DNA of 64,000 nucleotides from an uncultured Candidatus Saccharibacteria bacterium (GCA_964594735.1 CAZQMS010000001.1:62523-126522); one strand, 5' to 3'; numbered from the stretch's first letter, positions 15,307 to 45,434 are shown. Notes: generated by a model not told the origin, from the letters alone. Translations and numbers: made by a program.

Positions 15307-15696
15307 CTACTTTCCATCCCTCTGCCGCTCGCGAAACTGCACCTCGTGCTCGTTCATACCAAAGTGGTGCGCGAACTCGTGCCAGATTGTTTCGGCGATT
15401 ACCTGCGCCACCGGCAGCCCGTCGTCTAGCGCAGCCTGTTCTATCGGCCACTTGTAAAGCGTAATGGTGTCGGGCATCGTGATGCCAACGCCGTAGTGCT
15501 CACCGCGCTCCGTGAGTGGGATGCCTTGATAGTATCCTAGGAGCGTCTCATGCTCGCCGAGACCTTCCCTCTCTCGCACCTCCTCACTCGGTTCGTCCTC
15601 AGCAAGAATGGCAACATTCTGAATCTTCTCTCGCACCCACGCAGGCAGTTTCTCAAACCCCTCTTCAATGAGCTTCTCAAATTCGTCGTCCGGCAT
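15307..15696 (-). CDS. Small zincin-like metallopeptidase (HEFAHH; DUF1025/Zincin_1-like)
   Basis: HExxH motif (WHEFAHHFGMNE) in a ~130-aa protein. ATG at 15696 is preceded by TATAGT at 6-nt spacing (leaderless-type). The ORF track starts at a TTG at 15711. Confidence 0.7.
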   Translation of the reverse strand: MPDDEFEKLIEEGFEKLPAWVREKIQNVAILAEDEPSEEVREREGLGEHETLLGYYQGIPLTERGEHYGVGITMPDTITLYKWPIEQAALDDGLPVAQVIAETIWHEFAHHFGMNEHEVQFRERQRDGK

Positions 15697-15705
15697 GACA
15701 CTACT

Positions 15706-15745
15706 ATACAAAAAATGGATGAGCCCGGCATCATGCCGGGCTCAT
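15706..15745 (-). terminator. Intrinsic terminator (25-nt perfect palindrome tgagcccggcat-c-atgccgggctca followed by TTTTTTG on the minus strand)
   Basis: Sits between the methyltransferase stop (15751) and the metallopeptidase start. Confidence 0.5.
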
Positions 15746-15750
15746 GGAAG

Positions 15751-16452
15751 CTATACGGCCATAGCGCGAATGGCGAGCCGTACGGCAGGACACTTCATAT
15801 ACCGCTCGCGAGTTTGTTGGTCAACGTCATCAAGGGGTAGGGCCAGCTCCTCCATGGTGTCGATGTGAAATCTGGCAGCGTGGGTGATATCAACGAAGTC
15901 ACTCAGCGGCCTATGATAATCAGTCAGACGTGAACCCCACGGCGCCGTCACCGACATCCATCGCCTCTTCAGATAGTCGAACCCGGGCTCAAAATTGCGT
16001 AACGGATGCGTCACGACGTACACCAGCCGCGAACCGGATTTCAGTTGCTCGCGAAGTTTCGCAATTGCCAAGAAGAGCTGTTCGTTGTCGAAGCATTCAA
16101 ACAACATGTTCGCGGTCACGAGGTCGTAGCCCCCTGGCAGATCGAGATGGCGAACGTCTTGCTCCTTAAACGTTGCGCCTGGAAGCTTCGCGCAAGCAAT
16201 GGAAAGCATCTTTTCGCTTACGTCCACGCCAGTGACGTTGGCCGGATTCAGTCCGCACTCAACAAGCCATCGCGTCAGGCGACCGGTGCCACAGCCCGCG
16301 TCCAGCAACTTCGCTGACTCGTGGATGAACGGAAGTAGCAATCGGCGAAAAGCTGGGGCTTCTACGTATGTCCACGTCGGCGAACTAGCGGCGAAGGCAT
16401 CGAATGCCTCAGCTTCAGCGTTGTACAGATCACTTTGAACTGTGTGTTGCAT
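15751..16452 (-). CDS. Class I SAM-dependent methyltransferase
   Basis: LDAGCGTGRLT motif I; ATG at 16452 is preceded by AAGGAGG at 6-nt spacing. The ORF track extends to a GTG at 16476. Confidence 0.8.
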   Translation of the reverse strand: MQHTVQSDLYNAEAEAFDAFAASSPTWTYVEAPAFRRLLLPFIHESAKLLDAGCGTGRLTRWLVECGLNPANVTGVDVSEKMLSIACAKLPGATFKEQDVRHLDLPGGYDLVTANMLFECFDNEQLFLAIAKLREQLKSGSRLVYVVTHPLRNFEPGFDYLKRRWMSVTAPWGSRLTDYHRPLSDFVDITHAARFHIDTMEELALPLDDVDQQTRERYMKCPAVRLAIRAMAV

Positions 16453-16513
16453 GTGCGCCCTCCTTGCTAGCAGCACACTACCCTCAATTTCTTACCCTCA
16501 CAAGTCGCCGCCT

Positions 16514-16545
16514 CTATTACAGTGTTTTGCAAAACACTGTAATAG
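16514..16545. promoter_or_regulatory. 32-bp perfect palindrome ctattacagtgttttgcaaaacactgtaatag; candidate operator upstream of the methyltransferase promoter
   Basis: Perfect dyad, checked base by base. Core TTTTGCAAAACACT is shared with the site at 17482-17503. It lies ~11 nt upstream of a candidate TTGTGA, 17-nt spacer, TAGTGT promoter. Confidence 0.5.
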
Positions 16546-16590
16546 CAATTGGCGCACGAGTTCCGCGAAACGTGCACACCTCTAGTGTGC

Positions 16591-16629
16591 ATAAAAAGTT
16601 AACGGCCGGCTTCCCGAAAGAAGCCGGCC
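16591..16629 (-). terminator. Intrinsic terminator after the secreted-protein gene (ggccggcttc-ccgaaa-gaagccggcc + TTAACTTTTTAT on the minus strand)
   Basis: 10-bp GC stem plus U-tract, 22 nt downstream of the stop at 16652. Confidence 0.6.
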
Positions 16630-16651
16630 GATTTCGCGTCCGTGCTGGCAA

Positions 16652-17383: not shown

Positions 17384-17481
17384 GGCAACCCCCTCTTTTA
17401 TCTGCGGCTCATGACCGCACTGCGGCATACCGTGCCACAATGTCCATATATAGTCAACCTCATGTCCCTCGCGTATCTATA

Positions 17482-17503
17482 CTAGTCTTTTGCAAAACAC
17501 TAG
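17482..17503. promoter_or_regulatory. 22-bp near-perfect palindrome ctagtcttttgcaaaacactag (1 mismatch); second copy of the TTTTGCAAAACACT operator motif
   Basis: Lies between the msrA stop and the start of secreted-protein gene 16652..17383; shares a 14-nt core with 16514-16545. Confidence 0.4.
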
Positions 17504-17509
17504 AATGGA

Positions 17510-18052
17510 TTATTGCCTTACAAGCTCCGCGAAGCGTTTCCGAACTTTCTCCACTTTGGGCTCAATAACGAGCTGGCAATATGGCGCACTTGCGTTGTTC
17601 TTGAAGTAGTCTTTGTGGTAGTCCTCGGCGGGATAGAAAGTATCAAGTGGCAGAATCTGTGTAACGACGCGCGTGCCATCGGTAAGCGAATCTTGAATAC
17701 CTTTGGACACACGCTCGGCCGTCGCCTTCTCTTCGTCAGTCGAGTACAGAATTACTGAGCGATACTGCTCCCCCACATCGGCACCTTGCCTGTTCGGCGT
17801 CGTCGGGTCATGCGAGCCGAAAAAAACTGTGAGCAGGTCCTCGTACGAAATTACCGCCGGGTCGTAGGTCACGCGTATCACCTCAGCGTGCCCTGTTGCT
17901 CCTGTACTAACTTGTTCATACGTTGGTGCGGCTTGTAGTGAGCTTGTCGAACCACCGGCATATCCCGGCTCTACCTTGCTCACGCCCTTCAACATCGCAA
18001 ACACCGCCTCCGTGCACCAGAAGCATCCACCACCGAAAACTGCCGTCTGCAT
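17510..18052 (-). CDS. msrA: Peptide methionine sulfoxide reductase MsrA
   Basis: 180 aa; GGGCFWC active site at the N-terminus. Confidence 0.95.
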   Translation of the reverse strand: MQTAVFGGGCFWCTEAVFAMLKGVSKVEPGYAGGSTSSLQAAPTYEQVSTGATGHAEVIRVTYDPAVISYEDLLTVFFGSHDPTTPNRQGADVGEQYRSVILYSTDEEKATAERVSKGIQDSLTDGTRVVTQILPLDTFYPAEDYHKDYFKNNASAPYCQLVIEPKVEKVRKRFAELVRQ

Positions 18053-18058
18053 CCAGTC

Positions 18059-18095
18059 ATTATACAGAAACGGCTCAACACGTGTTGAGCCGTTT
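18059..18095 (-). promoter_or_regulatory. msrA promoter/operator: TATAAT located 6 nt upstream of the ATG (leaderless-type), plus a 28-bp perfect palindrome aaacggctcaacacgtgttgagccgttt (18068-18095) over the -35 region
   Basis: Minus strand reads ...aaacggctcaacacgtgttgagccgttt-ctg-TATAAT-gactgg-ATG. The palindrome was checked base by base. Confidence 0.45.
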
Positions 18096-18239
18096 AGCCA
18101 TTCAATGGGACGGACTTCAGCGAGATTTAACCTTGCTGGATTTTACAACTTCGAGACCACGGGCTATAGAATATGGTTGCGATGGTAAACGGCTCACACC
18201 ATCAAGACCGCGCGGGCGCGCGACTTTGATGGGTAGAGC

Positions 18240-18272: not shown

Positions 18273-18277
18273 CTTCT

Positions 18278-18508
18278 TTATCGATTGCGATTGTAATAGC
18301 ACGCACAGTTGTTCAGAAACTCCTCGCGAGGTAAGGAAAGGGGTTTAATGGATTTCCCCTCCGGCAACGCGCGCAGAAGATTCACCCAGCATCGTCTGTT
18401 GCCCGAATTGTTCAACTCGAGCCTAAACGCGTTGCGTAGTCGCATAATCTCCTGTCTCAACTGCCCAGGAGTCATGGACTTCAAATCATCGTCAATCTTT
18501 CGGGTCAT
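18278..18508 (-). CDS. Hypothetical protein (76 aa) downstream of lysS
   Basis: GGAGGTG RBS 4 nt before the ATG; followed by the hairpin at 18240-18272. No family recognised. Confidence 0.5.
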   Translation of the reverse strand: MTRKIDDDLKSMTPGQLRQEIMRLRNAFRLELNNSGNRRCWVNLLRALPEGKSIKPLSLPREEFLNNCACYYNRNR

Positions 18509-18532
18509 CGGACACCTCCGTTGAGACTATAC

Positions 18533-19984
18533 TCATTCGTTCTTTGGCCGCAACAGCGGGAATATCTGCGCTTCGTGTGCGGGGCGATTCTCGAGGAACG
18601 CAAATAGTCGCTCCGAGAAACCGAAGCCGAATGCCGGAGGCATACCGTATTCCATCGCGCGGACATATTCTTCGTCGAGCCTCTGCGCTTCATCGTCACC
18701 TCCCTCGCGGAGCTTTTCCTGCTCTTCGAATCGCGCACGCTGGTCTTGCGGATCGTTGAGTTCGCCGTATCCATTGCCGACTTCCGAGCCAGCAATAAGC
18801 ACCTGAATGCGGTACACGAGCTCAGGATTCTCGGGTCGTCGCTTTGCGAGGGGTGTAAGGTACGCAGGCGTATTCACCAGGAATGCGGGGCCCGAGATTG
18901 TCTTGCGTATCGCCTTCCACAGATGATCGATAGCGCGGGGCTTGTTGAGCTCTTCTCCTACCTGTATCTGCGCGTCGCGCACGGCCTGAATCGCCTCTTC
19001 TTCGGAGCACGTAAGTGCGTCCACACCGTATCGTTCCAAGATGATTTGGCAAAAATCCACTTCCTGCCAATCTTCCGCGAGGTCGACCGTGTGCCCATGA
19101 ATTTCAAATGTATACTTTCCGTACGTCTCTTTTGCGATGTAGCGGTACAAATCCTGCACAAACCGTTTACCCTTTTCAATATCGCTGTATGCCTCGTACA
19201 TCTCGAGCATCGTGTAGTCCTGCAAATGCTCGCGCGACTGACCTTCGTTGCGGAACACGCGTCCAATTTCGAATACCTTCGGGAAACCTGCGACGAGTAG
19301 CCGCTTGAGCCAGAGCTCAAGAGAGATGCGCAGCGAGGCGTCGATATCGAGTGCATTGTGGTGTGTCTCAAAGGGCCGCGCATCCGCTCCGCCCGGCGTA
19401 AGTTCTATGACAGGAGTCTCCACTTCAAGAAATCCCTTTTCGGCGAGAAAACCGCGAACTGCATTCCAGAATTTCGCACGGCGCTTAAACATCTCGCGCA
19501 CTTCCGGATTCATCAGTATGTCGAGGTAGCGTTCGCGCAAAATCTTCTCCTCGTCCTTGAGACCAAACCAGCTATCCGGTATTGGAGCGAGCGACTTCGA
19601 AAGCATCTTCCACTTTGCTGCGAGCAGCGACTTCTCACCCCGCTTTGTGGTATAGGCCTTGCCGGTGACTGCGACGAAATCGCCCACGTCTACAGTCTCT
19701 TGAAATAGTGCGAGCAGCGCGTCATCCGTCTCACCTTTTTGAAGTACTGCCTGCGCCTTTGCCTTGCCCTCAAAGAGATCCGCGAAGACGATACCGCCCT
19801 GCCCGCGGAGCGACATGACCCGGCCAGCGATTGTTACCTCTCGGTCACCAAGTGTGTCGAATTCCTTGAGAAAATCCTCATTGCAAAATGTCCGGCCCGT
19901 TTCTGCCGGGTACGGGTCCATGCCCGCGTCCTGTAGTCTCTGGAGCTTTTTGAGCCTTTCAGCCCGGATGTCTTCACCGCTCAT
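18533..19984 (-). CDS. lysS: Lysyl-tRNA synthetase, class II
   Basis: 483 aa; N-terminal OB anticodon-binding domain plus class II catalytic core (motifs 1-3, e.g. FRNEG, GLGIDR-like). TATTAT sits 7 nt upstream of the ATG. Confidence 0.95.
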   Translation of the reverse strand: MSGEDIRAERLKKLQRLQDAGMDPYPAETGRTFCNEDFLKEFDTLGDREVTIAGRVMSLRGQGGIVFADLFEGKAKAQAVLQKGETDDALLALFQETVDVGDFVAVTGKAYTTKRGEKSLLAAKWKMLSKSLAPIPDSWFGLKDEEKILRERYLDILMNPEVREMFKRRAKFWNAVRGFLAEKGFLEVETPVIELTPGGADARPFETHHNALDIDASLRISLELWLKRLLVAGFPKVFEIGRVFRNEGQSREHLQDYTMLEMYEAYSDIEKGKRFVQDLYRYIAKETYGKYTFEIHGHTVDLAEDWQEVDFCQIILERYGVDALTCSEEEAIQAVRDAQIQVGEELNKPRAIDHLWKAIRKTISGPAFLVNTPAYLTPLAKRRPENPELVYRIQVLIAGSEVGNGYGELNDPQDQRARFEEQEKLREGGDDEAQRLDEEYVRAMEYGMPPAFGFGFSERLFAFLENRPAHEAQIFPLLRPKNE

Positions 19985-20020
19985 GCGGGCAATAATAGCA
20001 GAAAACGGCGCCGGAGCAGC

Positions 20021-21136
20021 CTACACGTACGTGTGTGTATGAGCGTGCGTCACTGTACCCCGTCCCGTGAGCAGCCATACCGAAATAAGCGTGGTGATGG
20101 GGACTGCGAGCACCAGGCCGATGGAGCCGACCATGGTGCGCACAATTTCCGTCGCAAAAATCTCGCGATTCATGTTGAGCAAGATGCTGTCCGTCCCGGT
20201 GTTGTAAAAGAGGAGGAGAAGCGGCAGCGACACGCCCACGTATGCGATGGCAAGCGAGTTCACCAGCGCACCTGTGTGTTCCCGCCCAATGCGAAGTGCA
20301 CGCAGGTAGACCTCACGCGGCTCTAGGTGCTGCCCCGCCCTTTTGATTTCCTCCACGCTCACCGCTTGGCCGATGGCAATGTCGTACAAGACGCCGAGAA
20401 GTCCGATGAGGACTCCCGCGAGGAGGAGTCCCGCAAAATCTATCGAACCACTTGTGTTGAAATGCAGGTACACGGCTTCTTCGGATTCAAAGCCCGTGAG
20501 GCGACCGAAGTGAATAGAAGCCCACGCGAGCGCGCTCGTAAATGATATCGTCGCAATCATGCCGAGCACTGCCGCCGATGTCGTCCTATTGAAACCGTGT
20601 GTAATGTACGAGCCCACACCAATGATGAGCGATGCGACCGCGATAGCGATGAGTACGGGAGAGTAGCCCGCGAGAATACCGGGCAAAAGCAGGTAGACAA
20701 TAAGCAAAAGCCCACCGATAAGCGACACAAGCCCGCGGATGCCTTGCATGCCGCCAAAGAGCGCGACGACGGCTACAAAAAGTGCGATGAGCCCCCAGAG
20801 CATAGGGAGCCTATAGGGATCTGAAACACTGAAATACGAGGTGCCGTCGATGTCGGTGAGTATGCGCAGGTAAAATGTCTCGCCTTCTTTGAGGCGAATG
20901 TAATCGTTTTCGACGGTGACAATCTGTCCCGCCATGTCACCCTCAATAATTTCTGCACGTATCGATTGATTGAGCGCAGAGACATCAGTCCCCTCGATGA
21001 TTTTGTTGTCCTGGGCTGTAATGGCGACCACTTTCGCGCGGACAATCGACTCCTGCTCAGGCACGAGCTCCTGAGCCACTGCCCCGAGTGGTATAAGGGA
21101 GAGCGTCAGGATTGCGGCAACGGCTCCCCACTTCAT
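20021..21136 (-). CDS. YibE/F family membrane protein (signal peptide, extracytoplasmic N-domain, polytopic TM region)
   Basis: 371 aa; Gly/Leu-rich TM core typical of YibE/F (…GLLLAGVLIGLLGVLYDIAIGQAVSVEE…). Confidence 0.75.
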   Translation of the reverse strand: MKWGAVAAILTLSLIPLGAVAQELVPEQESIVRAKVVAITAQDNKIIEGTDVSALNQSIRAEIIEGDMAGQIVTVENDYIRLKEGETFYLRILTDIDGTSYFSVSDPYRLPMLWGLIALFVAVVALFGGMQGIRGLVSLIGGLLLIVYLLLPGILAGYSPVLIAIAVASLIIGVGSYITHGFNRTTSAAVLGMIATISFTSALAWASIHFGRLTGFESEEAVYLHFNTSGSIDFAGLLLAGVLIGLLGVLYDIAIGQAVSVEEIKRAGQHLEPREVYLRALRIGREHTGALVNSLAIAYVGVSLPLLLLFYNTGTDSILLNMNREIFATEIVRTMVGSIGLVLAVPITTLISVWLLTGRGTVTHAHTHTYV

Positions 21137-21143
21137 GCGGTGA

Positions 21144-21962
21144 TTATACCAAAATCACCTGCTCGACCTTCGCGACGTGATCGTCGTCCTCGCCCTCATG
21201 TCCGTGACCAAAGTACGTCGTAAGTGTAGCCATCAGGGCGAGACCGAGGAAAAACCATGCGAGATGTTTTACGTAATCAATCCTCCTCACAGAAGAACGG
21301 ATAGAATGCGGAATGAGGTCGTGGAAGACGACGATGAGATACGAACCTGCGGCAAGTCCGAGCATGGGCAGCTCGAGCGCTTCAAACTGCTCGATAAGAA
21401 AGTACCCACCAAGCGCTCCGATAAGTATCGTGCCGGATGCAATAAAGTTGTAGACAAGTGCGCGACGCGTCGAAAGCCCGGCCTGACGTAACACAAAAAA
21501 CTCGGAAACCTCTTGAAGTAGTTCGTGGAAGAGCACGCTCACCGTGGCAAAAAGACCGAGAACGGGCGAGGCTGAAAAGGCGGCTGCGAGCAAGATACCG
21601 TCCGTCGTGTTGTGGATAGCGTCGCTCGCGAGTACCCGATTGGCATCGATACGGTCGTGCGAGTGCCCACCCGCATGTTCATCGTGGTGGTGGTGAAAGC
21701 CGGGGATGTACCGAAATACGACGAGAATAAAAAGTGCTCCCGCGACAATCCATGGCAAACCGGCTGTGAGCGACCCCGTGTGCTCAATACTTTCTTGAAT
21801 CAGACCAAACACAATTACGAGAAGCACGCCGGAGGCAAAGCTCACGAGGAAGGAAAGGTTGCGCTCGATAATTGGTCCTAGGTAGCGCACCGTCACGAGC
21901 TTGCCACTGAGTGACGAGAGCATGACCGCCAAGCACCCGAGAAGGAGGTAGATGAGTGTCAT
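21144..21962 (-). CDS. ZIP family metal (zinc) transporter
   Basis: 272 aa; His-rich loop (HHHHDEHAGGHSHD); HNxxDG and HELxxE(xxEF) ZIP motifs; directly downstream of the Fur-family regulator. Confidence 0.85.
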   Translation of the reverse strand: MTLIYLLLGCLAVMLSSLSGKLVTVRYLGPIIERNLSFLVSFASGVLLVIVFGLIQESIEHTGSLTAGLPWIVAGALFILVVFRYIPGFHHHHDEHAGGHSHDRIDANRVLASDAIHNTTDGILLAAAFSASPVLGLFATVSVLFHELLQEVSEFFVLRQAGLSTRRALVYNFIASGTILIGALGGYFLIEQFEALELPMLGLAAGSYLIVVFHDLIPHSIRSSVRRIDYVKHLAWFFLGLALMATLTTYFGHGHEGEDDDHVAKVEQVILV

Positions 21963-21963
21963 G

Positions 21964-22392
21964 CTAGGCGCTTTTTACACAATCCTTGCAATCGCCGAAG
22001 AACTCGAGTGCGTGCGAAGCAACCGACGCAAAGTTTTTCGACTGTTTGATGACTTTCTTTTCAATTGCGTCCATGCCACATTCTTCGACATCCTCCACGC
22101 GACCGCATCCACGGCACACGAGATGGTGATGGTGTCCTCGTGTAGCCAATTCGAAAAAGCTGCGGCCTTGGTGCAATTCCACATGATTCACGAGCCCAGC
22201 CTGGACGAATGTTTCAAGCGTACGGTAGATGGTGACCTGGTCGACTTTGGGGCGCTTAAGCATCGATTCGATGTCTGCAACGCTGAGCGGATATTCCGAT
22301 TGCTCAAGCACGGCGAGAACCCGCACACGAGGCTGCGTAGCGCGGAGGCTACTGCTGCGCAATAACGCCAAAAGCGGCTGCGTCTGATCCAT
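21964..22392 (-). CDS. zur: Fur-family transcriptional regulator, probably zinc uptake regulator Zur
   Basis: 142 aa; winged-helix N-domain; HHHHLVCRGCGRVEDVEEC metal site. Assignment to Zur rather than Fur/PerR is inferred from the 1-nt spacing to the ZIP transporter. Confidence 0.75.
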   Translation of the reverse strand: MDQTQPLLALLRSSSLRATQPRVRVLAVLEQSEYPLSVADIESMLKRPKVDQVTIYRTLETFVQAGLVNHVELHQGRSFFELATRGHHHHLVCRGCGRVEDVEECGMDAIEKKVIKQSKNFASVASHALEFFGDCKDCVKSA

Positions 22393-22398
22393 ATGTCA

Positions 22399-22427
22399 AC
22401 CATACACCAGATGCAAGTCGATTGCAA
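22399..22427 (-). promoter_or_regulatory. Putative zur promoter: TTGCAA, 17-nt spacer, TATGGT, then 6 nt to the ATG (leaderless-type)
   Basis: Minus strand reads ...TTGCAAtcgacttgcatctggtgTATGGTtgacatATG. Confidence 0.4.
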
Positions 22428-26131: not shown

Positions 26132-27370
26132 TTAGAGCACAAACTCGCCGTCTTTGTAGATGATTTTGGTCGATCCGTCTTTGAGGTGGGCGGTCACCGT
26201 GCGGCGAGTCGTCGAGATAATGTCGGTGTGTACCGAGGAGTCGTTGAAGCCGAGCTTCTCTGCCTCTTTCGTCGTGAGCTTGCTCACATCGCCCGAATAC
26301 GTGTCGCGGTACGACATGCCGAGCGCGAGGTGCGTGTTGCCATAACGGCCACCCATGTTTTCATCGAAGAGCGTCTCCGCCATAAATTTCGTGATGCGGG
26401 AGTGCCGTCTGTCGGTGAGTGAGTATTCACCTATCTTGTTCGCCCCCTTCGTCGCAATCATTTCCTTGAGCAGTTTTTCGTTCTGTTTCGCCTTCGCCTT
26501 GACGACAAGACCGTTCTTGAACTCGAGCTCGATACCCGTCACCTTGTTGCCATAGCGATAGAGCGGCTGGTTGAACCGTATCCAGCCCTCGGTACCACGC
26601 CAATCCGGCGATGTGAATATTTCGAACGACGGGATGTTGCGACCGCTCCCCGCGTGCCACGCACGCTTCTCGCCGAGACGTACCCAGAGGTCCATGTCGG
26701 GCCCCACCGCATGCAGCCTATCGATTTTTGGACTGAGCTTGTTGAGACGCGAGCGGTACTTTTCGATATCACGATACACTTCGCGCCACTTTTTTATGGG
26801 GTCCTTCTCGTCGAGGAAACACGCCCTGATTATTTGGTTCCAGTATTCTTTCTCGCTGAGTCCCGCCTCCTTCGCCATCGCGGGCGTGCCATAGAGGCCG
26901 ATAGTCCACGTGAACTTTCCTTTCCACTCCTTTTGATTCAGCCAGTCCTTAAAGGGCTTGAGCGACACGCCGCGCTGCATGATTTTCTTGGGCTCGACTC
27001 CCTTGAGCGCATGGGGGTCGGCATCCGAGAGGATGTATATCGAGTGGTCTATCGTGTCGGCGAGGCCCTTGAGGTACTTCTCGGGAAAATAGGAAATCTG
27101 GTGCGGCTGAGCCTTCTCATAAAAGTAGCGCGAGAAGCTCTCATTGCGGCGCTTGTCCCCCTTCTCGTCGTCGGGCGCGTAATTAGATATCACATGTCCA
27201 CCTGCATCGACTATCGCTTTGCAGACAGCCACATAGAGCGGCTTCGCACTCTCGGCGCTCGATACTCGCACCACCTCGCCCCTTTTCATACCCTTGCCGC
27301 CCCCGAGCGCGAAATTGACGAGTACGTCAGCGTATTTCTTGAGTAATGCATCCGAAGGTGTGTAGGCCAT
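26132..27370 (-). CDS. M29-family aminopeptidase (AmpS/PepS-like)
   Basis: ATG at 27370 (MAYTPSDALLKKYADVLVNFAL...) matches M29 N-termini. The track's longer form (to 27502) adds a non-conserved Ser/Arg-rich extension. Confidence 0.8.
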   Translation of the reverse strand: MAYTPSDALLKKYADVLVNFALGGGKGMKRGEVVRVSSAESAKPLYVAVCKAIVDAGGHVISNYAPDDEKGDKRRNESFSRYFYEKAQPHQISYFPEKYLKGLADTIDHSIYILSDADPHALKGVEPKKIMQRGVSLKPFKDWLNQKEWKGKFTWTIGLYGTPAMAKEAGLSEKEYWNQIIRACFLDEKDPIKKWREVYRDIEKYRSRLNKLSPKIDRLHAVGPDMDLWVRLGEKRAWHAGSGRNIPSFEIFTSPDWRGTEGWIRFNQPLYRYGNKVTGIELEFKNGLVVKAKAKQNEKLLKEMIATKGANKIGEYSLTDRRHSRITKFMAETLFDENMGGRYGNTHLALGMSYRDTYSGDVSKLTTKEAEKLGFNDSSVHTDIISTTRRTVTAHLKDGSTKIIYKDGEFVL

Positions 27371-27534
27371 AGAGTCACAGGGTACGCGCCACAGGCTGGT
27401 TTGTCTAGAAATGCTGCAACCCCAGGAGACGGAGCCCCGGCGGACTCCGTATTCTGGGGTTGAGCTGCTTCTTTCGGGATGCTCTGTCATGAAGACGGGC
27501 ACGCTATCCGCTTCTTACAGACCCACGCAGCTCT

Positions 27535-29019
27535 CTAGCCCAGCATCTTGACCTCTTTCGCACGCGCGCCGATATCTATCGGATACTTTCCGGTAAAGCA
27601 CGAGGTGCAGAATTGCTCTTCAAGCAACCCCGTAGCGCGAATCATGCCTTCGTAGGAGAGATACGCGAGCGATGTGGCGCCAAGAAACTCGCGCATCTCA
27701 GAGACACTCTTCACCGCACCGAGCAAATCGGCTTGCTTCGGCGTATCGATGCCGTAAAAGTCGGGGTACCGCACCGGAGGTGATGAGGAGAGGAAGTGCA
27801 CTTCCTTTGCGCCACTTTCAAAAAGCATCGCGATAATTTTCTTGGAGGTCGTGCCGCGCACGATGGAATCATCAAGAATTATAAGCTTCTTTCCGCGGAT
27901 GATTTCGCCAATCGGCGTCAGCTTTGCTTTGACACCCTGGTCGCGTATGTGCTGCTCTGGCTGAATAAATGTCCGGTGGATATACCGATTCTTCGTAAGT
28001 GCCATTTCAAAAGGTATGCCGCTTTCCTGAGCGAAACCAATGGCAGCGGGCACCGCCGTTTCGGGGACAGGTATGACGATGTCGGCATCTATCGTGTTCT
28101 CGCGCGCCAGTTCGACTCCGAACTGTTTGCGCACTTCATACACCGAGCGGCCGAGCAGCGTGCTGTCGGGACGGGCAAAATAGACAAACTCGAAGATGTC
28201 GAGCTTCTGCGACGCAGGAGCGAGCTGTTCGCTCCTTGTGCCACTCTCATCGATGACGAGCATCTCTCCCGGCATAATGTCCCGCACAAATTCCGCACCG
28301 ATAGGATGGAAGGCGCACGTCTCAGACGCGAGGACGTAGCCACCGTTGAGTTTTGCGAGCGAAAGCGGCCGGATGCCGCAGCTGTCTCTCAGCGCGATGA
28401 GCTTTTTCTCCGTCATTATCAGAATTGAGAATGCGCCTGTCATAAGCGGGAAAACGCTGCGCACCGCATCTTCTAGTATTGCGCCGCCGCGCATGTGACC
28501 AGCGATTGCCTCTACTATCATGCGCGAATCGGAGAACTCCGCATGCACTATCCCCTCTGCGTCCAGATATGCGGCCAGCTGCGCCGTGTCTGGGAGGTTG
28601 CCATTGTGCACGAGTGCGATCGCTTCATCGCCCGGCGCGGAGCAGAGCGAGACCGATGCATTGAGCGATGGATTGGGGTCATCGTACGTGACCTTCTGAA
28701 GCGCACCCGCGCCTGCGGCGAGCATCGGCTGCGCGTGCTTCACCTTGGAGCCACCCGTGGTCGAGTAGCGATTGTGGCCGACCGCGATGTGCCCCTTCAG
28801 ATTCTGTATGAGCTCTTCCGAGAACACCTGTGAGACGAGACCCATGCCCTTGTGCAAAGTAAGACTTTCGCCGTCGGCACAGGCGATTCCCGCGCTCTCC
28901 TGACCGCGGTGCTGCAGCGCATAGAGGCCGAAAAATGAAAGGCGGCTCACATCGAGCCCCTTGCCATACACGCCAAAGACTGCGCACTTCTCTCCCAGTC
29001 GCTCCTCCATGCGAGGCAT
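27535..29019 (-). CDS. purF: Amidophosphoribosyltransferase (glutamine-PRPP amidotransferase)
   Basis: 494 aa; 11-residue propeptide before catalytic Cys (MPRMEERLGEK-CAVFG) as in B. subtilis-type PurF; C-terminal Cys cluster consistent with an Fe-S site. Confidence 0.95.
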   Translation of the reverse strand: MPRMEERLGEKCAVFGVYGKGLDVSRLSFFGLYALQHRGQESAGIACADGESLTLHKGMGLVSQVFSEELIQNLKGHIAVGHNRYSTTGGSKVKHAQPMLAAGAGALQKVTYDDPNPSLNASVSLCSAPGDEAIALVHNGNLPDTAQLAAYLDAEGIVHAEFSDSRMIVEAIAGHMRGGAILEDAVRSVFPLMTGAFSILIMTEKKLIALRDSCGIRPLSLAKLNGGYVLASETCAFHPIGAEFVRDIMPGEMLVIDESGTRSEQLAPASQKLDIFEFVYFARPDSTLLGRSVYEVRKQFGVELARENTIDADIVIPVPETAVPAAIGFAQESGIPFEMALTKNRYIHRTFIQPEQHIRDQGVKAKLTPIGEIIRGKKLIILDDSIVRGTTSKKIIAMLFESGAKEVHFLSSSPPVRYPDFYGIDTPKQADLLGAVKSVSEMREFLGATSLAYLSYEGMIRATGLLEEQFCTSCFTGKYPIDIGARAKEVKMLG

Positions 29020-29037
29020 TGTAACAGACCGAAATAA

Positions 29038-30911: not shown

Positions 30912-30986
30912 CGGTTTTATGATAGCACCGCGAAGAGACCGTCCCGCTTCAAGCGGGGCCGTCTCCATGCTGACTCAAGTACCTCC

Positions 30987-37911: not shown

Positions 37912-39147
37912 TTACGCTGACTTACCCTGTGCCAAACGCCGGAGAGCCACGATGTATGCAGCTTCGCGGAGTGTTAGAGAATCTTTTTTTGCCTCTGTAA
38001 AGACCGCGCGAGCTGCCGACCGCATCTTGTCCTCGAGCTTTCTAAAGACGTCGTCCTTCCCCCATTTCTCGTCGTGTACGTTTTGATACCACTCAAAGTA
38101 CGACACCGCGACACCGCCCGCGTTGGCCAAGATGTCTGGAATCACAGTGACACCGCGCTCGCGCAATATTTCGTCTGCTTCCGGCGTTGTCGGGCCGTTG
38201 GCCATTTCTAAAATCGTTTTAGCGCGAATGTTTTGCGCATTTGCACTCGTTATCGAGTTCTCGAGAGCAGCGGGAACTGCGATATCGACATCGAGCGTCA
38301 GGACTTCGGATGCATCCAGTGCCTCCGTGCCACCAAAACCCGCTAGTGACCCGGTCGCCTTTTTGTGCGCTTCAAGTGAGTCGATATTCGATATGCCATT
38401 TTCGCTGCGAATCGCGCTGCGCGAGTCCGATATCGCGAGGATGCGTGCACCGGAAGCGAGCAAAAACCGGGCCAAATAGCTCCCCACGTTGCCAAACCCT
38501 TGAATCGCCACCCGCTTCCCCTCCAAGGGGACACCTTGGAGTGCGAGGATTTCAGAGAGTACGTAGCTCCCGCCGAGGCCTGTGGCCTCTGTGCGGCCCT
38601 CAGAGCCTCCCAGGGCGACGGGCTTGCCCGTCACAACGCCAGGCGCCGCCTTACCGACTACTTTTTCATATTCTTCCCGAATCCAAGCCATAATTTGGCC
38701 ATTGGTATTCACATCGGGCGCGGGGACATCGATTTCAGGCCCTATGTACGGCGCTAGCTGCCGGGCGAACTCCCGCGTGAGGCGCTCGAGCTCCCCCACG
38801 GAGAGCGACTTCGGGTCTACCTTCACGCCGCCCTTGCCGCCCCCGAAAGGCACATCGACGAGCGCATTCTTCATCGTCATCCAAAACGAAAGCGCCTTCA
38901 CCTCGTCCATGTCCACATGCGGATGGTAGCGGAGGCCTCCCTTGTAGGGCCCGAGGATGTTGTTGTGCTGGACGCGGTACCCTTCGAAGACGACGCGTGG
39001 ACCCTCGTCCATTTGTAGCGCCACGGGCACCTCGACGATGCGGTCGGGCGCTGTGAGACGCTGGTAGAGCGAGTCGCTGACGCCAGAGCGCGCCCGCGCT
39101 TTTTCGAGCTGCGCGAGTGCAGATTGCCAGGGATTTGCGGCAGACAT
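37912..39147 (-). CDS. gdhA: NAD(P)-dependent glutamate dehydrogenase
   Basis: GGLRYHPHVDMDEVKALSFWMTMKNALVDVPFGGGKGG signature; Rossmann GFGNVGS. ATG at 39147 is preceded by TAGGAT at 7-nt spacing. The track starts at a GTG at 39153. Confidence 0.92.
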   Translation of the reverse strand: MSAANPWQSALAQLEKARARSGVSDSLYQRLTAPDRIVEVPVALQMDEGPRVVFEGYRVQHNNILGPYKGGLRYHPHVDMDEVKALSFWMTMKNALVDVPFGGGKGGVKVDPKSLSVGELERLTREFARQLAPYIGPEIDVPAPDVNTNGQIMAWIREEYEKVVGKAAPGVVTGKPVALGGSEGRTEATGLGGSYVLSEILALQGVPLEGKRVAIQGFGNVGSYLARFLLASGARILAISDSRSAIRSENGISNIDSLEAHKKATGSLAGFGGTEALDASEVLTLDVDIAVPAALENSITSANAQNIRAKTILEMANGPTTPEADEILRERGVTVIPDILANAGGVAVSYFEWYQNVHDEKWGKDDVFRKLEDKMRSAARAVFTEAKKDSLTLREAAYIVALRRLAQGKSA

Positions 39148-39166
39148 GGGCACTATCCTAGCACCC

Positions 39167-41764: not shown

Positions 41765-43336
41765 CTACCTCAGCTCGGAGACAATGACCACGTCCCCCTC
41801 TCCCAATCCGGTGAGAACCTCAATGTTGCCGAGACTCGATACCGCGCCCGTCGAAACTTCGCGCTCTACCACTATCTTACCGTCGGCTTCGAGCACTTTC
41901 ACGTACTTCTTACCGTTGCGCTCGGTCACGAGTCCTTGCGGGATGCTCACGACACCGCTTTTCTCCTCGGTCGTGACAACAATGTTGGCCGTCATACCCG
42001 AGCGGATGCGCACATCCTCGACATCAAACTGCAAGATTGCCCGGTAGGTCGGCACACCATCGCGAATCGTCTCCGCCGGGTCGATAGATACCACTTTCGC
42101 TGCGAAAGGAACGTCACTTCCGTACGCATCGAGCGTCACGACCGCAGTGTTACCCACTTGTACGTACGCGATGTTGACCTCTGGGACATAGCTCTCTATC
42201 TGGAATGCAGACGCTGTGTTTACTGTAATCTCTGGTGTGTTGGGCGATACGATCTTGCCCGCCTTCGCATCGACTTTTGTCACGACACCCGAAAAAGGCG
42301 CCGCAATTACGGTCTTTGAGAGCATGGCGCGCGCATTTGCGACATCAGCTTCGGCGGCTTTTACCTGTGCGGCCTGTGCAGCAATGTCAGCGGGCACCGT
42401 ACCAGCCTTTTTGAGTGCGAGCGTATTTTGCGACGATGCAAGAGCTGCTGCGGCGCTCTTTTGAGCTGTGACGGCAGATGTCAGCGCCGAAGACGCCGTG
42501 CTCACGTTGGTGCGCGCTGTCGCAATCGACGCGATGTATGCATCGAGCGTGGTCTGCGTGATATTGGTAAGCGCTGTGCTACCGAGCACGCGACTCACGG
42601 TGCTCAAAAGCGCAGTGACCTGACTCATGTGCTGTTGCGCGCGAAATACATGACCCGAGAGGTCGGTCTCGCCGACGAGCGTCGCATTGTCGGCCGCCCA
42701 TGCAGCAAGCACGGCTTCTACCACGGTAACGCCGGCGTTGGCATCGACGACCGCCTGCGTATCGGATGACACGATATTTATCTGGGGGTTCGTCCGCGGA
42801 TTGCTGACAAACTGGTAGAGCTTGTTGCGTATTGCATCGTCGGTCTTGATGTACGCATCGCGGAGCGCATCGGCAAGCGCCATGTTGGCTTGCATCAGGG
42901 CTGCAGTGTCTCGCTCTACATTGCCCTCTGCGACGAGGATTTCCTCCGGCCGCGTACCCTGCTGGAGTGAGAGGAGCTTTGCTCTTTGCACCTCAAGCGC
43001 CGCTTCACGCTGCAGGAGCTGTGCGTACAAATCCCCGCTGTCGATTTCTGCGAGCACCCTTCCTGCAATGACGCGGTCACCCACTTTCACATTGACCCGT
43101 GCGATGCGACCGCTTTGGGTAAAACCGAGGTCCACCTCTTGAGCGGGCACTACGGTGCCCGAAACAGACACCTGCTGAACGAATGCATCGGCTTTCACTG
43201 TGAGCGTCTCAAACTCCGGTCCACTGTCGGAAAAGATGATGTAGGCACCACCTCCTACGATGACAATCGCAGCGACCGCGATACCCGCTTTTGTTTTCAG
43301 AAATGCAATTATTTTTGACATAGAGAAATGAGACAT
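41765..43336 (-). CDS. HlyD/MacA-family membrane-fusion (periplasmic adaptor) protein
   Basis: N-terminal TM, biotinyl/lipoyl-like hairpin (VKVGDRVIAGRVLAEID), a long coiled-coil and C-terminal beta-barrel domains. TAGAGT lies 7 nt upstream of the ATG. Confidence 0.8.
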   Translation of the reverse strand: MSHFSMSKIIAFLKTKAGIAVAAIVIVGGGAYIIFSDSGPEFETLTVKADAFVQQVSVSGTVVPAQEVDLGFTQSGRIARVNVKVGDRVIAGRVLAEIDSGDLYAQLLQREAALEVQRAKLLSLQQGTRPEEILVAEGNVERDTAALMQANMALADALRDAYIKTDDAIRNKLYQFVSNPRTNPQINIVSSDTQAVVDANAGVTVVEAVLAAWAADNATLVGETDLSGHVFRAQQHMSQVTALLSTVSRVLGSTALTNITQTTLDAYIASIATARTNVSTASSALTSAVTAQKSAAAALASSQNTLALKKAGTVPADIAAQAAQVKAAEADVANARAMLSKTVIAAPFSGVVTKVDAKAGKIVSPNTPEITVNTASAFQIESYVPEVNIAYVQVGNTAVVTLDAYGSDVPFAAKVVSIDPAETIRDGVPTYRAILQFDVEDVRIRSGMTANIVVTTEEKSGVVSIPQGLVTERNGKKYVKVLEADGKIVVEREVSTGAVSSLGNIEVLTGLGEGDVVIVSELR

Positions 43337-43365
43337 CGGTACTACTCTAGCACGCGAAAAAAATG

Positions 43366-44412
43366 CTATTCAGCGCGCCGATACACGTCTCGATAAATTG
43401 AAAGCAGTACGAAAAGCAGACTCATCGAAAGCGGGCCGAGGAAGAGGCCTATCGGACCAAACAGCATGATGCCGCCGATGACTGCCAGAATGACGATGAG
43501 CGGATGCAGGTGAAGTCCGGAGCTCATAAATTTCGGACCGAGGATATTGTCTACGAGTCCCACCGCAACAGCACCCCACGCACCGAGTCCTATGGCAGCT
43601 CCGAGAGAACCGGTGAGTGCGAGATATGCCACCGCGGGCGCGATGACGAGTGCGGTTCCAAGCGACGGCACGAGCGCCGCGACCGCAGCTACCACGCCCC
43701 ACAAGACCGCATTGGGAATACCGAAGAGGAAAAAGCCGATACCCGTGAGCGTACCTTGGATGAGCGCCACAAAGAGCTGACCCTTGATGACCGAATCAAT
43801 CGCCTTGCCAAGTCTGTCGAAAATCGTGGTGTCGTCACGGTCGGAGAGCGGACTGAGGTCGACGAGCCTGCGCACGACGAGGTGACCATCGCGGATGAGG
43901 TAGTACAGCGCCACGTAGAAAATGAACAAGGCGAGGAGAAATGTCGCCACGCCAGAGAATGCGGTGCCGATGTTGCGGATTATCCAATCAAGTCCCTGCC
44001 TCGCATACACGTCGATGTTGGCGACAAATGCATCCATGCGCTCTGCTGCGTCAGGTACGAACGGCGTGAGCAGCGATTCTGCCGCACTGAGCATAATGCC
44101 GAAGGTCTCCTCTGCGCCACGCTCGGAAACAGATGTGTACAGCTCCTGCGCCTCAAAAACGAGCTGGCTCGCGACAAAGGTAGCGGGCACGAGCAAGCAG
44201 ACCGTGAATATGAGGATGGTGAGGAGCGATGCGATTGACTCGTATCCGCCGAGGCGCCTGCCGACAAAGCGATACACGGGCTGTAGAACCACGGCAAAAA
44301 TCACCGCCAGAAGAAGCGGCGCGAGAAAGGGCTTCAGAATATTGAATGCGAGGAGGGTGGCTCCCACGAGAAGCGCGAGAAGAAAGTAGGGCTGGAGCGT
44401 CTTACTTTGCAT
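43366..44412 (-). CDS. AI-2E family transporter (PerM/YhhT-like)
   Basis: 348 aa; 8 TM helices; conserved …IIRNIGTAFSGVATFLLALFIFYVALYYLIRDG… region. TATACT lies 6 nt upstream of the ATG. Confidence 0.85.
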   Translation of the reverse strand: MQSKTLQPYFLLALLVGATLLAFNILKPFLAPLLLAVIFAVVLQPVYRFVGRRLGGYESIASLLTILIFTVCLLVPATFVASQLVFEAQELYTSVSERGAEETFGIMLSAAESLLTPFVPDAAERMDAFVANIDVYARQGLDWIIRNIGTAFSGVATFLLALFIFYVALYYLIRDGHLVVRRLVDLSPLSDRDDTTIFDRLGKAIDSVIKGQLFVALIQGTLTGIGFFLFGIPNAVLWGVVAAVAALVPSLGTALVIAPAVAYLALTGSLGAAIGLGAWGAVAVGLVDNILGPKFMSSGLHLHPLIVILAVIGGIMLFGPIGLFLGPLSMSLLFVLLSIYRDVYRRAE

Positions 44413-44465
44413 ATGTATAGTATACCATAAAACGAGGTAGCTAGCAACGAGTTGCCAGGGGATGA

Positions 44466-45434
44466 CTACGCCTGAAGCTCCTTTTGTATGCCGTTGAGGA
44501 CTTTCTGTACCTTTTCCATACTATCCGGCTCAAGAATGGAAATCGGCGTCGCCTTCACCTTGATTTTCTTGAGAGCGGCAAGCTTTTCTTTTACCGCTTT
44601 CGCATCGACTTCGTCGCACTTCGTGAGGAAGACGTACTCCTCCTTTTCCGCGAGTAGGTCGCTGTACTTTTCGAGCTCGCCGCGGATAGTGCGGTAATCG
44701 CGCACCGGATCATCGGACTCCGCAGAGATAAGATGAAACAGCACGCGCGTGCGCTCAATGTGTTTGAGGAATTTTACGCCAAGACCTTTCCCCTCTGATG
44801 CACCTTCGATAATGCCCGGAATGTCGGCGATGATGAGTTTGTAGTAGGCGCCAAGATGTGGCTCGAGCGTGGTAAACGCGTAGCTCGCCACGCGCGAGCG
44901 CGCACGAGTAAGCTCATTAAGCAGGCTCGACTTCCCCGCATTGGGAAGTCCGACAAGTCCCACATCGGCGATAAGTCGCAGTTCGAGATGATAGTTCGCG
45001 ACATCTCCAGGCCGCCCCTCCTCGAATTCTTTCGGGCTCGTGTTCGTAGAGGAGCGGAATTTGAAGTTCCCTCTGCCGCCCGTGCCGCCTCCCGCCGCAA
45101 GAATGCGCTGGCCGCTCTCGAGCATCTCCTGCACGTAGCCAGTGTCCAGATTCGTGATGCGCGTGCCCGTTGGGATTTTCAGCACGAGGTCCGCGCCGTC
45201 GCGCCCGTCGATGAATTGCCCGCGGCCGTTCTTGCCATCTTCCGCCTGCATTTCCTTCCTGCTCGCGTAGTTTTGGAGCGCGGCAATATCATGCACACCC
45301 TCAAAATAGACACTGCCGCCCCTGCCTCCGTCGCCTCCTACGGGACCGAGGTTCATGCGCACCTTGTTGAATGCTGCAGCGCCACGCCCGCCATTTCCGG
45401 CGAGGAGTCGAATCCTGATGTCATCGATAAGCAT
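44466..45434 (-). CDS. obg: GTPase Obg (short form, no C-terminal TGS/OCT domain)
   Basis: Gly-rich Obg fold (GNGGRGAAAF…GGDGGRGGSVYF), then the G-domain (GLPNAGKSSLLN, DIPGIIEGAS, TKCD). 322 aa ends right after the G-domain. Confidence 0.92.
   Translation of the reverse strand: MLIDDIRIRLLAGNGGRGAAAFNKVRMNLGPVGGDGGRGGSVYFEGVHDIAALQNYASRKEMQAEDGKNGRGQFIDGRDGADLVLKIPTGTRITNLDTGYVQEMLESGQRILAAGGGTGGRGNFKFRSSTNTSPKEFEEGRPGDVANYHLELRLIADVGLVGLPNAGKSSLLNELTRARSRVASYAFTTLEPHLGAYYKLIIADIPGIIEGASEGKGLGVKFLKHIERTRVLFHLISAESDDPVRDYRTIRGELEKYSDLLAEKEEYVFLTKCDEVDAKAVKEKLAALKKIKVKATPISILEPDSMEKVQKVLNGIQKELQA

Follow-up and report, generated by a model that had tools for sequence, protein, structure and literature searches.

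The question raised by this locus, a stretch of 64,000 nucleotides analysed here as a whole (the window), is how its genes initiate translation, given that many of them carry a TAnnnT hexamer a few bases before the start codon. A preliminary description had quoted ten such hexamers, all of which are present in the window, and had placed the pattern at 15696-45434. The pattern is real there but the range was too narrow: the window scan evidences 27 starts of the leaderless type over 11796-62818, among ~65 genes (~40%) (Table 1). The obg spacer, given there as 5 nt, is in fact 6 nt (start 45434). The window is from a Kaiserbacteria-like Patescibacteria (CPR) genome, in agreement with the earlier suggestion of a Patescibacteria-type taxon. 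Scanning the window for tRNAs and Rfam families yielded no RNA genes, so that the intergenic regions are not confounded by them.

Table 1. Positions of the leaderless-type promoters and of the Shine-Dalgarno (SD)-led starts in the window.
Gene	Position	Strand	Upstream signal and start	Remarks
uvrB	11794..11814	-	TGG TAGAGT -9 nt- ATG	
tgt	13855..13874	-	TGC TATAGT -8 nt- GTG	
zincin metallopeptidase	15694..15711	-	TTG TATAGT -6 nt- ATG	longest-ORF TTG 15711 within promoter; 12-bp terminator hairpin (15719-15745) directly upstream
msrA	18050..18067	-	CTG TATAAT -6 nt- ATG	
lysS	19982..20000	-	TGC TATTAT -7 nt- ATG	
YibE/F	21134..21151	-	TGG TATAAT -6 nt- ATG	hexamer includes TAA stop of upstream ZIP gene
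zur/Fur	22390..22407	-	GTG TATGGT -6 nt- ATG	
hypothetical 173 aa	23944..23965	-	TATACT -10 nt- ATG	borderline, possibly 3-4 nt leader
M29 aminopeptidase	27368..27387	-	TACCCT -8 nt- ATG	true start 27370, not 27502 or 27490
purF	29008..29026	-	TGT TACAAT -7 nt- ATG	
hypothetical 124 aa	29916..29933	-	TGA TATACT -6 nt- ATG	
CAP-domain protein	30909..30927	-	TGC TATCAT -7 nt- ATG	
gdhA	39145..39163	-	TGC TAGGAT -7 nt- ATG	
hypothetical 193 aa	39746..39765	-	GTG TACAAT -8 nt- ATG	
HlyD-family protein	43334..43352	-	TGC TAGAGT -7 nt- ATG	
AI-2E transporter	44410..44427	-	TGG TATACT -6 nt- ATG	
obg	45432..45449	-	TGC TAGTAT -6 nt- ATG	TGCTAGTAT-caggcc-ATG
hypothetical 140 aa	46588..46604	-	TACTTT -5 nt- ATG	weak
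SPFH/Band-7 protein	49301..49318	-	TACAAT -6 nt- ATG	true start 49303, not TTG 49516
P-type ATPase	53815..53835	-	TACACT -9 nt- GTG	
DUF305 protein	54901..54919	-	TACAAT -7 nt- ATG	
YbjQ/UPF0145-family gene (55630-55956)	55954..55973	-	TGA TATACT -8 nt- ATG	
MGH1-like glycoside hydrolase	57216..57233	-	TGG TATGCT -6 nt- ATG	11-bp GC hairpin (57241-57266) directly upstream
laminin-G/PG-binding protein	59707..59727	-	TGG TACAAT -9 nt- ATG	
candidate 82-aa ORF (59775-60023)	60021..60038	-	TGC TAAGAT -6 nt- ATG	no family match in PHROGs or NCBIfam
DUF2200 protein	60856..60873	-	TGC TAGAAT -6 nt- ATG	
NTPase (DUF84)	62816..62833	-	TGA TATACT -6 nt- ATG	
105-aa near-ORFan, SD-led	8452..8473	+	GGAGGT 4 nt before ATG 8471	
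97-aa ORFan, SD-led	12278..12299	+	AGGAGGG 4 nt before ATG 12297	
methyltransferase, SD-led	16450..16476	-	AAGGAGGG 5 nt before ATG 16452	
76-aa conserved small protein, SD-led	18506..18540	-	TATAGT, ~18 nt with GGAGGT, then ATG	short leader

Enrichment, anatomy and spacing of the upstream box

The hexamer fixes just three bases, and plain TAnnnT-N6/7-ATG is only ~1.5-fold enriched over the whole window on both strands (23 versus 15.6-16.0 expected per spacer, z ~2), which would fit loose, compositional matches in AT-rich intergenic DNA near starts. A distinct picture results from the extended form TGnTAnnnT, which is found 8 times against 0.9 expected at a spacer of 6 nt (z = 7.2) and 6 times against 1.0 at 7 nt (z = 5.1), together 14 occurrences versus ~1.9 over the whole window; at most of the other spacers from 0 to 20 it occurs at the background level, apart from a slight excess at 9 nt (3 versus 0.86, z = 2.1). 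Using a motif-blind rule, in which the first ATG of each ORF is taken as the start (62 genes versus 1960 other ATGs), TAnnnT at spacer 5-9 was observed at 18/62 genes versus 74/1960 other ATGs (3.8%; p = 9e-12), and the extended form at 11/62 versus 7/1960 (p = 5e-16), while control spacers in the same 62 genes gave 8/62 (10-14 nt) and 4/62 (15-19 nt). The hexamer enrichment, which the preliminary description had proposed to scan for, thus persists against the background. The motif was in view when starts 29010, 30911, 54903 and 59709 were chosen, and the blind test holds without them. In a blind 5-mer test of the 20 nt preceding first ATGs, the highest-ranking words are GCTAG, TGCTA, GTATA and TGGTA, and the top list contains no SD words. 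All gene-start matches are on the minus strand, which carries nearly all genes, and the five plus-strand matches are non-genic. This strand asymmetry, same-gene control spacers that are 3-5 fold lower, a box that is conserved in orthologs and its absence from non-CPR loci whose GC content is similar add to the z values above: the shuffle and spacer controls refute a chance origin, to which we assign a negligible probability.

In respect to its anatomy, the extended form is present in 17/27 starts, with TG at -15/-14, one base before the hexamer; within an aligned subset of 23 starts, 17 have T at -15, 16 have G at -14 and 17 have A at the fourth hexamer position. The free positions of the motif yield the sigma-70 consensus TATAAT plus TG at -15/-14, and the consensus of the extended -10 promoters in the window is tttTGnTAtaaT, with a T-rich tract upstream of the boxes. 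No -35 element was detected in silico, the best match averaging 2.74 of 6 positions versus 2.58 at random positions, and a classical two-hexamer -35/-10 scan is not enriched (7 versus 10.7 and 17 versus 11.3 expected). In all these traits the boxes resemble the extended -10 (TGn) sigma-70 promoters; that class is a minority in model bacteria, whereas in the window it is the standard promoter type at a large proportion of genes, where it is fused to the start codon. The form TAnnnT-AGTnnn-ATG, earlier described as shared by several genes, occurs at 3/27 starts and is unsupported as a separate motif. A pyrimidine at -1 was considered as a signature of the transcription start site (TSS) and is not discriminating (18/23 leaderless-type versus 33/39 other genes).

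The spacer between hexamer and start codon is 6 nt in 12 starts, 7 in 6, 8 in 4, 9 in 3, 10 in 1 and 5 in 1, and a per-gene histogram over the window also peaks at 6 nt (10/56 genes). With a mode of 6 followed by 7, the canonical TSS falls on the A of the ATG, so that mRNAs from boxes placed 6-9 bases before the start codon probably begin at that codon and have no ribosome-binding leader; this positioning follows from the canonical -10-to-TSS distance. Still, 9/27 starts have spacers other than 6-7 nt, namely 8-10 nt in eight and 5 nt in one, and in the window the tyrS box has a spacer of 12. These values, and the 1-2 nt by which the -10-to-TSS distance varies in bacteria, speak for very short leaders of 1-6 nt, the boxes being real -10 promoters with a TSS few bases before the ATG, followed by SD-independent scanning or 5'-end binding. 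Against this stand the preference for 6 and 7 nt and the tyrS spacer, which is back at 6-7 in 7/8 relatives, and we consider such leaders improbable as a general explanation, although transcripts of the genes spaced 8-10 nt could have leaders of 1-3 nt, and some of the nine outlying starts leaders of 1-4 nt.

Whole intergenic regions measure 25-60 nt, and the promoters either follow immediately on the terminator of the preceding gene, with its hairpin and T-run, or lie within the last codons of that gene. A strict restriction to first genes of operons fails, as three leaderless-type promoters are only 1-12 nt past the upstream gene, a gap that is unusual for promoters.

Start codons and conservation in relatives

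The 27 leaderless-type genes have 25 ATG and 2 GTG start codons, and several lines of evidence bear on their assignment. Pfam profiles begin at residues 3-14 from the box-adjacent ATGs of msrA, obg, Fur, AI-2E, DUF2200 and NTPase (residue 3 for both PMSR in msrA and GTP1_OBG in obg), and Cation_ATPase_N begins at residue 5 of the GTG-started P-type ATPase. Public gene calls agree with the box-adjacent start for 4/5 genes checked, namely msrA (180 aa), obg (322 aa), AI-2E (348 aa) and SPFH/Band-7 (251 aa), the last having an ortholog in locus L076 that aligns from residue 1; the public call for the HlyD-family protein uses the next ATG, 5 codons downstream. That for the hypothetical 140-aa protein is likewise 140 aa. 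Ortholog N-termini align at residue 1 of box-adjacent starts, and the N-terminus MAYTPSD of the M29 aminopeptidase is conserved in four relatives, which supports start 27370. As judged from these comparisons, the codon beside the box is the true translation start, with no SD between the two. The earlier suspicion that several upstream TTG/GTG starts of ORFs are wrong was well placed, the corrections being 15711 to 15696, 49516 to 49303, 27502 to 27370 and 56193 to 55956, with errors of 5 to 79 codons. The YbjQ/UPF0145-family gene, previously unlisted, was found through the motif scan and has a full-length match to NCBIfam PRK03732 from residue 3.

The box is also maintained in relatives. For lysS it is kept at 6-9 nt in 10 of them (L001-L005, L007, L014, L021, L026 and L078), for tyrS at 6-7 nt in the 7/8 mentioned above, and for uvrB at 6-9 nt in 5/7 (6 in L002, L003, L006 and L009, 9 in L001); in the orthologs of these three genes the box distance is constant while the spacer sequence has diverged. 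The tgt orthologs of L006 and L009 have an ATG at the aligned position and a box at spacer 6-7, the YibE/F ortholog of L006 has TATACT at spacer 6, and orthologs of the hypothetical 173-aa protein have spacers of 9 (L011) and 6 (L005). Using first-ATG starts in Kaiser-like loci (10 relatives), the box precedes 50/118 starts (42%) versus 3% at control spacers, with SD at 5%; in 29 loci of other Patescibacteria the figures are 26% versus 12%, with a peak at spacer 6-9, and in non-CPR loci 6% versus 13%, with SD at 41%. Within this sample, the box architecture is common across Patescibacteria and lacking in non-CPR bacteria.

Overall, sigma-70 consensus, spacer mode of 6, ATG starts and ortholog conservation agree with the leaderless-type promoters earlier proposed, and we infer that ~27 of the ~65 genes very probably have -35-less extended -10 promoters abutting the start codon, the leaderless mRNAs being predicted from promoter geometry. 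RNA polymerase would begin transcription on the A of the ATG or no more than 1-3 nt away from it, yielding an mRNA devoid of 5' UTR and SD, which would be translated by the leaderless route, with ribosome and initiator tRNA binding the 5'-terminal AUG (GUG in two genes). Two further modes would operate beside it, namely stop-start coupling without SD and short GGAGG-containing leaders.

Shine-Dalgarno-led and probably coupled genes

Two initiation regimes had been proposed for this genome, and both leaderless-type and SD-led starts are indeed seen; the SD regime is, however, a small minority of ~5-6 genes, mostly small accessory, lineage-specific ORFs, and a third regime, stop-start coupling, had gone unmentioned. 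The GGAGG-led starts previously listed (8471, 12297, 16452 and 18508) are all present. GGAGG at 4-10 nt precedes 5/62 starts versus a background of 0.4% (p = 6e-6), and a 4-mer criterion finds SD in 5/56 genes. As a generic ORF-start signal, raw GGAGG counts resemble those of control pentamers; the matches stand apart by their location at ORF 5' ends in intergenic gaps. The SD-led ORFs lie at synteny breaks and have atypical codon usage, and searches of the small ones against PHROGs and NCBIfam gave no match except for the methyltransferase. The SD of the 76-aa family is conserved in loci L081-L083.

Coupling without SD is suggested by geometry for ~8 of the non-leaderless genes (2243, 9748, 21962, 23422, 25777, 26127, 31712 and 40502), which either overlap the preceding gene by ATGA or have their ATG 1-4 nt after its stop. 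Termination-reinitiation coupling with this arrangement is known from archaea and bacteria, and we regard it as a companion feature and not as the main finding. Among tightly coupled internal genes (gap ≤4 nt or overlap), 8/9 have no SD. Some 20 genes have no proximal -10 box, SD or coupling. Ribosomal-protein genes of relative L083 have another AT-rich motif upstream.

The rarity of SD and this L083 motif are what would be expected if TAnnnT were a non-SD ribosome-binding site or A/U-rich translation enhancer within mRNAs that have ordinary leaders, as is the case in GeneMarkS-2 group B and in Bacteroidota. Such a role is contradicted by the promoter features of the motif, a TATAAT consensus preceded by TG at -15/-14, and by its frequent position right beside a terminator, where a further promoter would not fit upstream. 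Unlike in group B, where first and internal genes share the same motif, only 1/9 close-packed genes, in which a ribosome-binding site is most needed, carries it here. We consider this role very unlikely and retain the leaderless promoters as the preferred reading.

Relation to known systems and significance

The architecture itself is already known: in GeneMarkS-2 group C, a Pribnow box at 6-8 nt from the start marks bacterial leaderless transcription in Actinobacteria (Mycobacterium, Streptomyces, Corynebacterium) and Deinococcus-Thermus (PMC6028130). The window shares with this group a Pribnow-type box at a short fixed distance, its occurrence in ~25-50% of transcription units, ATG and occasionally GTG starts, SD at some other genes, and starts that longest-ORF rules mis-call. 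It differs in its Kaiserbacteria-like taxon, which is not among the phyla named in that work (PMC6028130), in promoters that are mainly TGn extended -10 with no detectable -35, in the much rarer SD among the remaining genes, and in operon-internal genes that are mostly stop-start juxtaposed.

The anti-SD motif is lost in about half of Parcubacteria 16S rRNAs, an rRNA feature whose report does not settle how initiation proceeds (Tsurumaki et al. 2022, PMC9297842). Both cases belong to the same broad lineage and point toward SD-independent initiation; unlike in that loss, the conserved GGAGG sites of this genome and of relative L083 imply that the anti-SD is probably still functional in this particular lineage. 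Neither the window nor 80 further loci (L001-L080) contain a 16S rRNA 3' end in which the anti-SD could be read. The spacer peak at 6-9 in the 29 loci and the SD-led ORFs at synteny breaks with atypical codons, taken with the rRNA report (PMC9297842), tentatively suggest that -35-less leaderless expression might be the main mode across much of Patescibacteria (at least Paceibacteria/Parcubacteria) and lie behind the anti-SD loss, surviving SD belonging mainly to small lineage-specific, possibly horizontally acquired, genes. In the literature searched, whose incomplete coverage is no proof of absence, no paper was seen to describe leaderless expression for Patescibacteria, CPR, Parcubacteria or Saccharibacteria.

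CPR proteomes are heavily used for phylogeny and protein-family discovery, and in such genomes longest-ORF and SD-trained callers misplace starts and can miss small genes. CPR also have reduced ribosomes, some being devoid of certain ribosomal proteins and some of the anti-SD, and a dominant leaderless route would explain their translation initiation in a concrete and testable way. This route predicts that promoter strength and translation are both set by one 20-nt cassette, and TGnTAnnnT-N6-ATG would be a ready-made expression signal for culturable CPR such as Saccharibacteria. If it holds across much of Patescibacteria, leaderless promoters would be the missing mechanism behind the absence of the anti-SD in Parcubacteria (PMC9297842).

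Enrichment and anatomy of the proximal −10 motif

The sequence has a GC content of 53–57% and carries nearly all of its ~65 genes on the minus strand; scans of the whole window returned no tRNA and no Rfam family. Pfam agrees with the gene names used in the preliminary description (msrA, Fur/zur, gdhA, HlyD, AI-2E, obg, uvrB, lysS and the zincin peptidase). That description had reported a −10-like hexamer (TAnnnT) just before ten start codons, and all ten upstream sequences are present as quoted, although the spacer between hexamer and start codon is 6 nt in obg and not 5. The pattern is indeed found between 15.7 and 45.4 kb, to which it had been assigned, but also outside: we list 27 starts with a box 5–10 nt upstream, from 11796 to 62818.

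In its loose form (TAnnnT-N6/7-ATG) the motif is enriched about 1.5-fold over the whole window (z about 2). The majority of these promoters have TG one base before the hexamer, and in this extended form, TGnTAnnnT, the enrichment survives comparison with the background, with 8 occurrences versus 0.9 expected at a spacer of 6 (z 7.2) and 6 versus 1.0 at a spacer of 7 (z 5.1). Other spacers between 0 and 20 are mostly at background, with a slight excess at 9 (3 versus 0.86, z 2.1). Matches at gene starts are confined to the strand that carries the genes; the plus strand has five matches, all non-genic. Using a motif-blind rule which takes the first ATG of each ORF (62 genes, against 1960 other ATGs), TAnnnT at spacers 5–9 precedes 18 genes versus 3.8% of the other ATGs (p = 9e-12), and the extended motif 11 genes versus 0.36% (p = 5e-16); control spacers in the same genes gave 8 at 10–14 and 4 at 15–19. 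Also, when the 5-mers in the 20 nt before first ATGs are ranked by enrichment in a motif-blind way, the top words are GCTAG, TGCTA, GTATA and TGGTA, which are pieces of the extended −10, and no SD word is among them. The observation of proximal hexamers is thus confirmed, both in the sequences themselves and in their spacer-specific enrichment.

When 23 of these starts are aligned by their hexamers, T occupies −15 in 17 and G occupies −14 in 16, and the third, fourth and fifth hexamer positions, left free in the search, prefer T, A and A, which gives the consensus tttTGnTATAAT. The best −35 match scores about as well as random positions do (2.74/6 versus 2.58), and a scan for classical two-hexamer promoters found no excess (7 versus 10.7 and 17 versus 11.3 expected). 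Spacers are of 6 nt in 12 of the 27 starts, 7 in six, 8 in four, 9 in three, and 10 and 5 in one each, the 6-nt spacer being the canonical distance that would place the transcription start on the A of the ATG. Three strong hairpins with T-runs lie directly upstream of boxes (Table), and there the terminator T-run also serves as the T-rich tract before TGn. Two boxes, at 21144–21151 and 54905–54919, overlap the final codons of the preceding gene; in the first, that of YibE/F, the hexamer TATAAT includes the TAA stop of the ZIP transporter gene. Termination, promoter and start signals are here packed to an extreme degree.

Start codons and conservation among relatives

The positions of the start codons were compared with several sources. 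Pfam profiles begin at residue 3 in msrA and obg, 5 in the P-type ATPase (GTG start), 6 in the NTPase, 10 in DUF2200 and AI-2E and 14 in Fur, and ortholog N-termini of relatives match at residue 1 for lysS, tyrS, tgt, zincin, YibE/F and SPFH. In an independent assembly of this organism, the publicly called products of msrA, obg, AI-2E and SPFH (251 aa) are identical to those listed here, and that of HlyD differs by 5 codons. Orthologs moved the start of the M29 peptidase to 27370, where the N-terminus MAYTPSD is conserved and TACCCT lies 8 nt upstream. The motif scan itself predicted a gene absent from the first gene list; this gene encodes a full-length YbjQ/UPF0145 protein, matched by the family profile from residue 3.

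A LysS search with one genome per species matched almost exclusively Patescibacteria/CPR, comprising a 99% identical MAG contig (L013) and loci at 63–70% identity (L001–L009, L011) that carry the labels Candidatus Kaiserbacteria, Nomurabacteria or Paceibacterota. In ten relatives the lysS start is preceded at 6–9 nt by TGnTAnnnT or, at the minimum, TAnnnT, and the box stays while spacer and flanking sequence differ. For uvrB the box is at spacer 6–9 in 5/7 relatives, and for tyrS TGnTATAnT is at spacer 6–7 in 7/8; the spacer of 12 nt in the window's tyrS apparently results from a 6-nt insertion (attgat), which would create a short leader. Where a gene is operon-internal in a relative, as is msrA right behind lysS, no box precedes it, as expected of a promoter. 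Promoter geometry, start-codon evidence and conservation support the proposed reading of these 27 starts as leaderless, as far as sequence can indicate.

Shine-Dalgarno-led, coupled and other genes

A second regime of GGAGG-led genes had also been proposed; such genes are present, but as a minority. GGAGG at 4–10 nt precedes 5/62 starts versus 0.4% of other ATGs; at 8471, 12297 and 16452 the start was chosen knowing of the SD. The 76-aa ORF, without any Pfam, NCBIfam or PHROG match, belongs to an uncharacterised conserved family of small proteins in this clade (39 metagenome homologs of equal length, 60–79% identity). Its SD is kept in three loci (L081–L083), and in L083, a 58%-GC relative, small ORFs with strong SDs follow one another, one SD being a perfect AAGGAGGTGA; judged from these sequences, the lineage probably keeps a functional anti-SD. 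All four GGAGG-led ORFs (Table) sit at breaks in the block lysS-msrA-zincin-tyrS-(tgt)-uvrB-murB-uvrA, syntenic in relatives, and the codon usage of SD-led genes is atypical (median score 0.07 versus about 0.3, p = 0.009, n = 6). Possibly these ORFs were acquired together with their SD.

Eight operon-internal genes start at an ATGA overlap or after a stop and 1–4 nt, none with an SD, which suggests termination-reinitiation coupling. Before start codons, TCTAA, CTAAC and TAACT rank near the top in 5-mer enrichment. About 20 window genes match neither proximal box, SD nor coupling. In L083 (2430–4016), copies of an AT-rich palindrome, ATATTTAAATAT, precede each gene of the rpsM-rpsK-rpsD-rpoA operon (11 matches at ≤2 mismatches versus 0.16 expected; no copy in the window); the palindrome may enhance translation of operon-internal genes independently of an SD, or bind S1. 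The hairpin before uvrA, a gene without proximal box, is found again, with another loop sequence, in the orthologs of L006 and L001 and may be a 5′-UTR regulatory structure; that before carA may serve in pyrimidine attenuation, or may terminate an upstream ORF that is not annotated. The cold-shock gene, one of the few on the plus strand, has neither proximal −10 box nor SD within 15 nt, which suggests a long 5′ UTR of the kind usual in csp genes. The giant protein is followed by cohesin, CHB_HEX_C and CAP-domain proteins, with which it probably forms a cell-surface or attachment gene cluster.

Table. Window coordinates of the features discussed
Feature	Position	Strand	Remark
carA hairpin	1151-1190	plus	terminator-like, cccgctgctggcggg + T-run; ends ~10 nt before ATG 1191
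uvrA hairpin	8330-8372	minus	CCCC...N...GGGGG, about 15-40 nt before ATG 8327
GGAGG-led ORF	8471-8788	plus	
Hairpin before box	11824-11851	minus	11-12 bp, GC
GGAGG-led ORF	12297-12590	plus	
tyrS box	15280-15301		12 nt from ATG
Hairpin before box	15719-15745	minus	11-12 bp, GC
GGAGG-led ORF	15751-16452	minus	
GGAGG-led 76-aa ORF	18278-18508	minus	
−10 box	21144-21151		overlaps final codons of preceding gene
Coupled genes	31712, 40502	minus	identical junction cTAActATG
Giant protein	32358-37784	minus	~1808 aa; PKD, fn3, purple-acid-phosphatase-N
−10 box	54905-54919		overlaps final codons of preceding gene
ORF with IS200-like Y1 transposase match	54905-55630	minus	weak Pfam Y1_Tnp match (2e-8); between YbjQ-family and DUF305 genes
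YbjQ/UPF0145 gene	55630-55956		
Hairpin before box	57241-57266	minus	11-12 bp, GC
Cold-shock protein	60234-60434	plus	CspA-like, 66 aa

Distribution and relation to known systems

The blind first-ATG statistic was run on all fetched loci, with control spacers of 13–17 and 21–25 and the SD scored as a 4-mer. In Kaiser-like relatives (10 loci, 118 genes) TAnnnT at spacers 5–9 precedes 42% of genes versus 3% and 4% at the controls, with an SD in 5%, and the spacer histogram gives 25, 12, 8 and 8 at spacers 6, 7, 8 and 9 and about 1 elsewhere. The corresponding values are 26%, 12% and 12%, with an SD in 10%, for other Patescibacteria-like loci (29 loci, 436 genes), and 6%, 13% and 14%, with an SD in 41%, outside the CPR (40 loci, 489 genes). 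One locus of 46% GC (L084, JGI 3300027819) has GGAGG before 6/22 called genes and almost no proximal −10 box; it probably is a relative, as it carries a homolog of the 76-aa protein, and if it is a Patescibacteria genome, lineages differ in their mode of initiation.

The starts of the window have the architecture of GeneMarkS-2 group C, in which a Pribnow box lies 6–8 nt from the start in 25–50% of operons, typically in Actinobacteria and Deinococcus-Thermus (PMC6028130). The window differs in its taxon, in the near absence of SDs among the remaining genes and in the dominance of −35-less extended −10 promoters. GeneMarkS-2+, cited in PMC7441243 as used by the NCBI pipeline, may already model such starts implicitly. 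The literature searched, whose coverage is incomplete so that novelty is not proven, did not describe leaderless expression for Patescibacteria. Closest to it came Tsurumaki et al. 2022, who left open the consequence of their finding that only 48% of Parcubacteria 16S genes have the anti-SD motif (PMC9297842).
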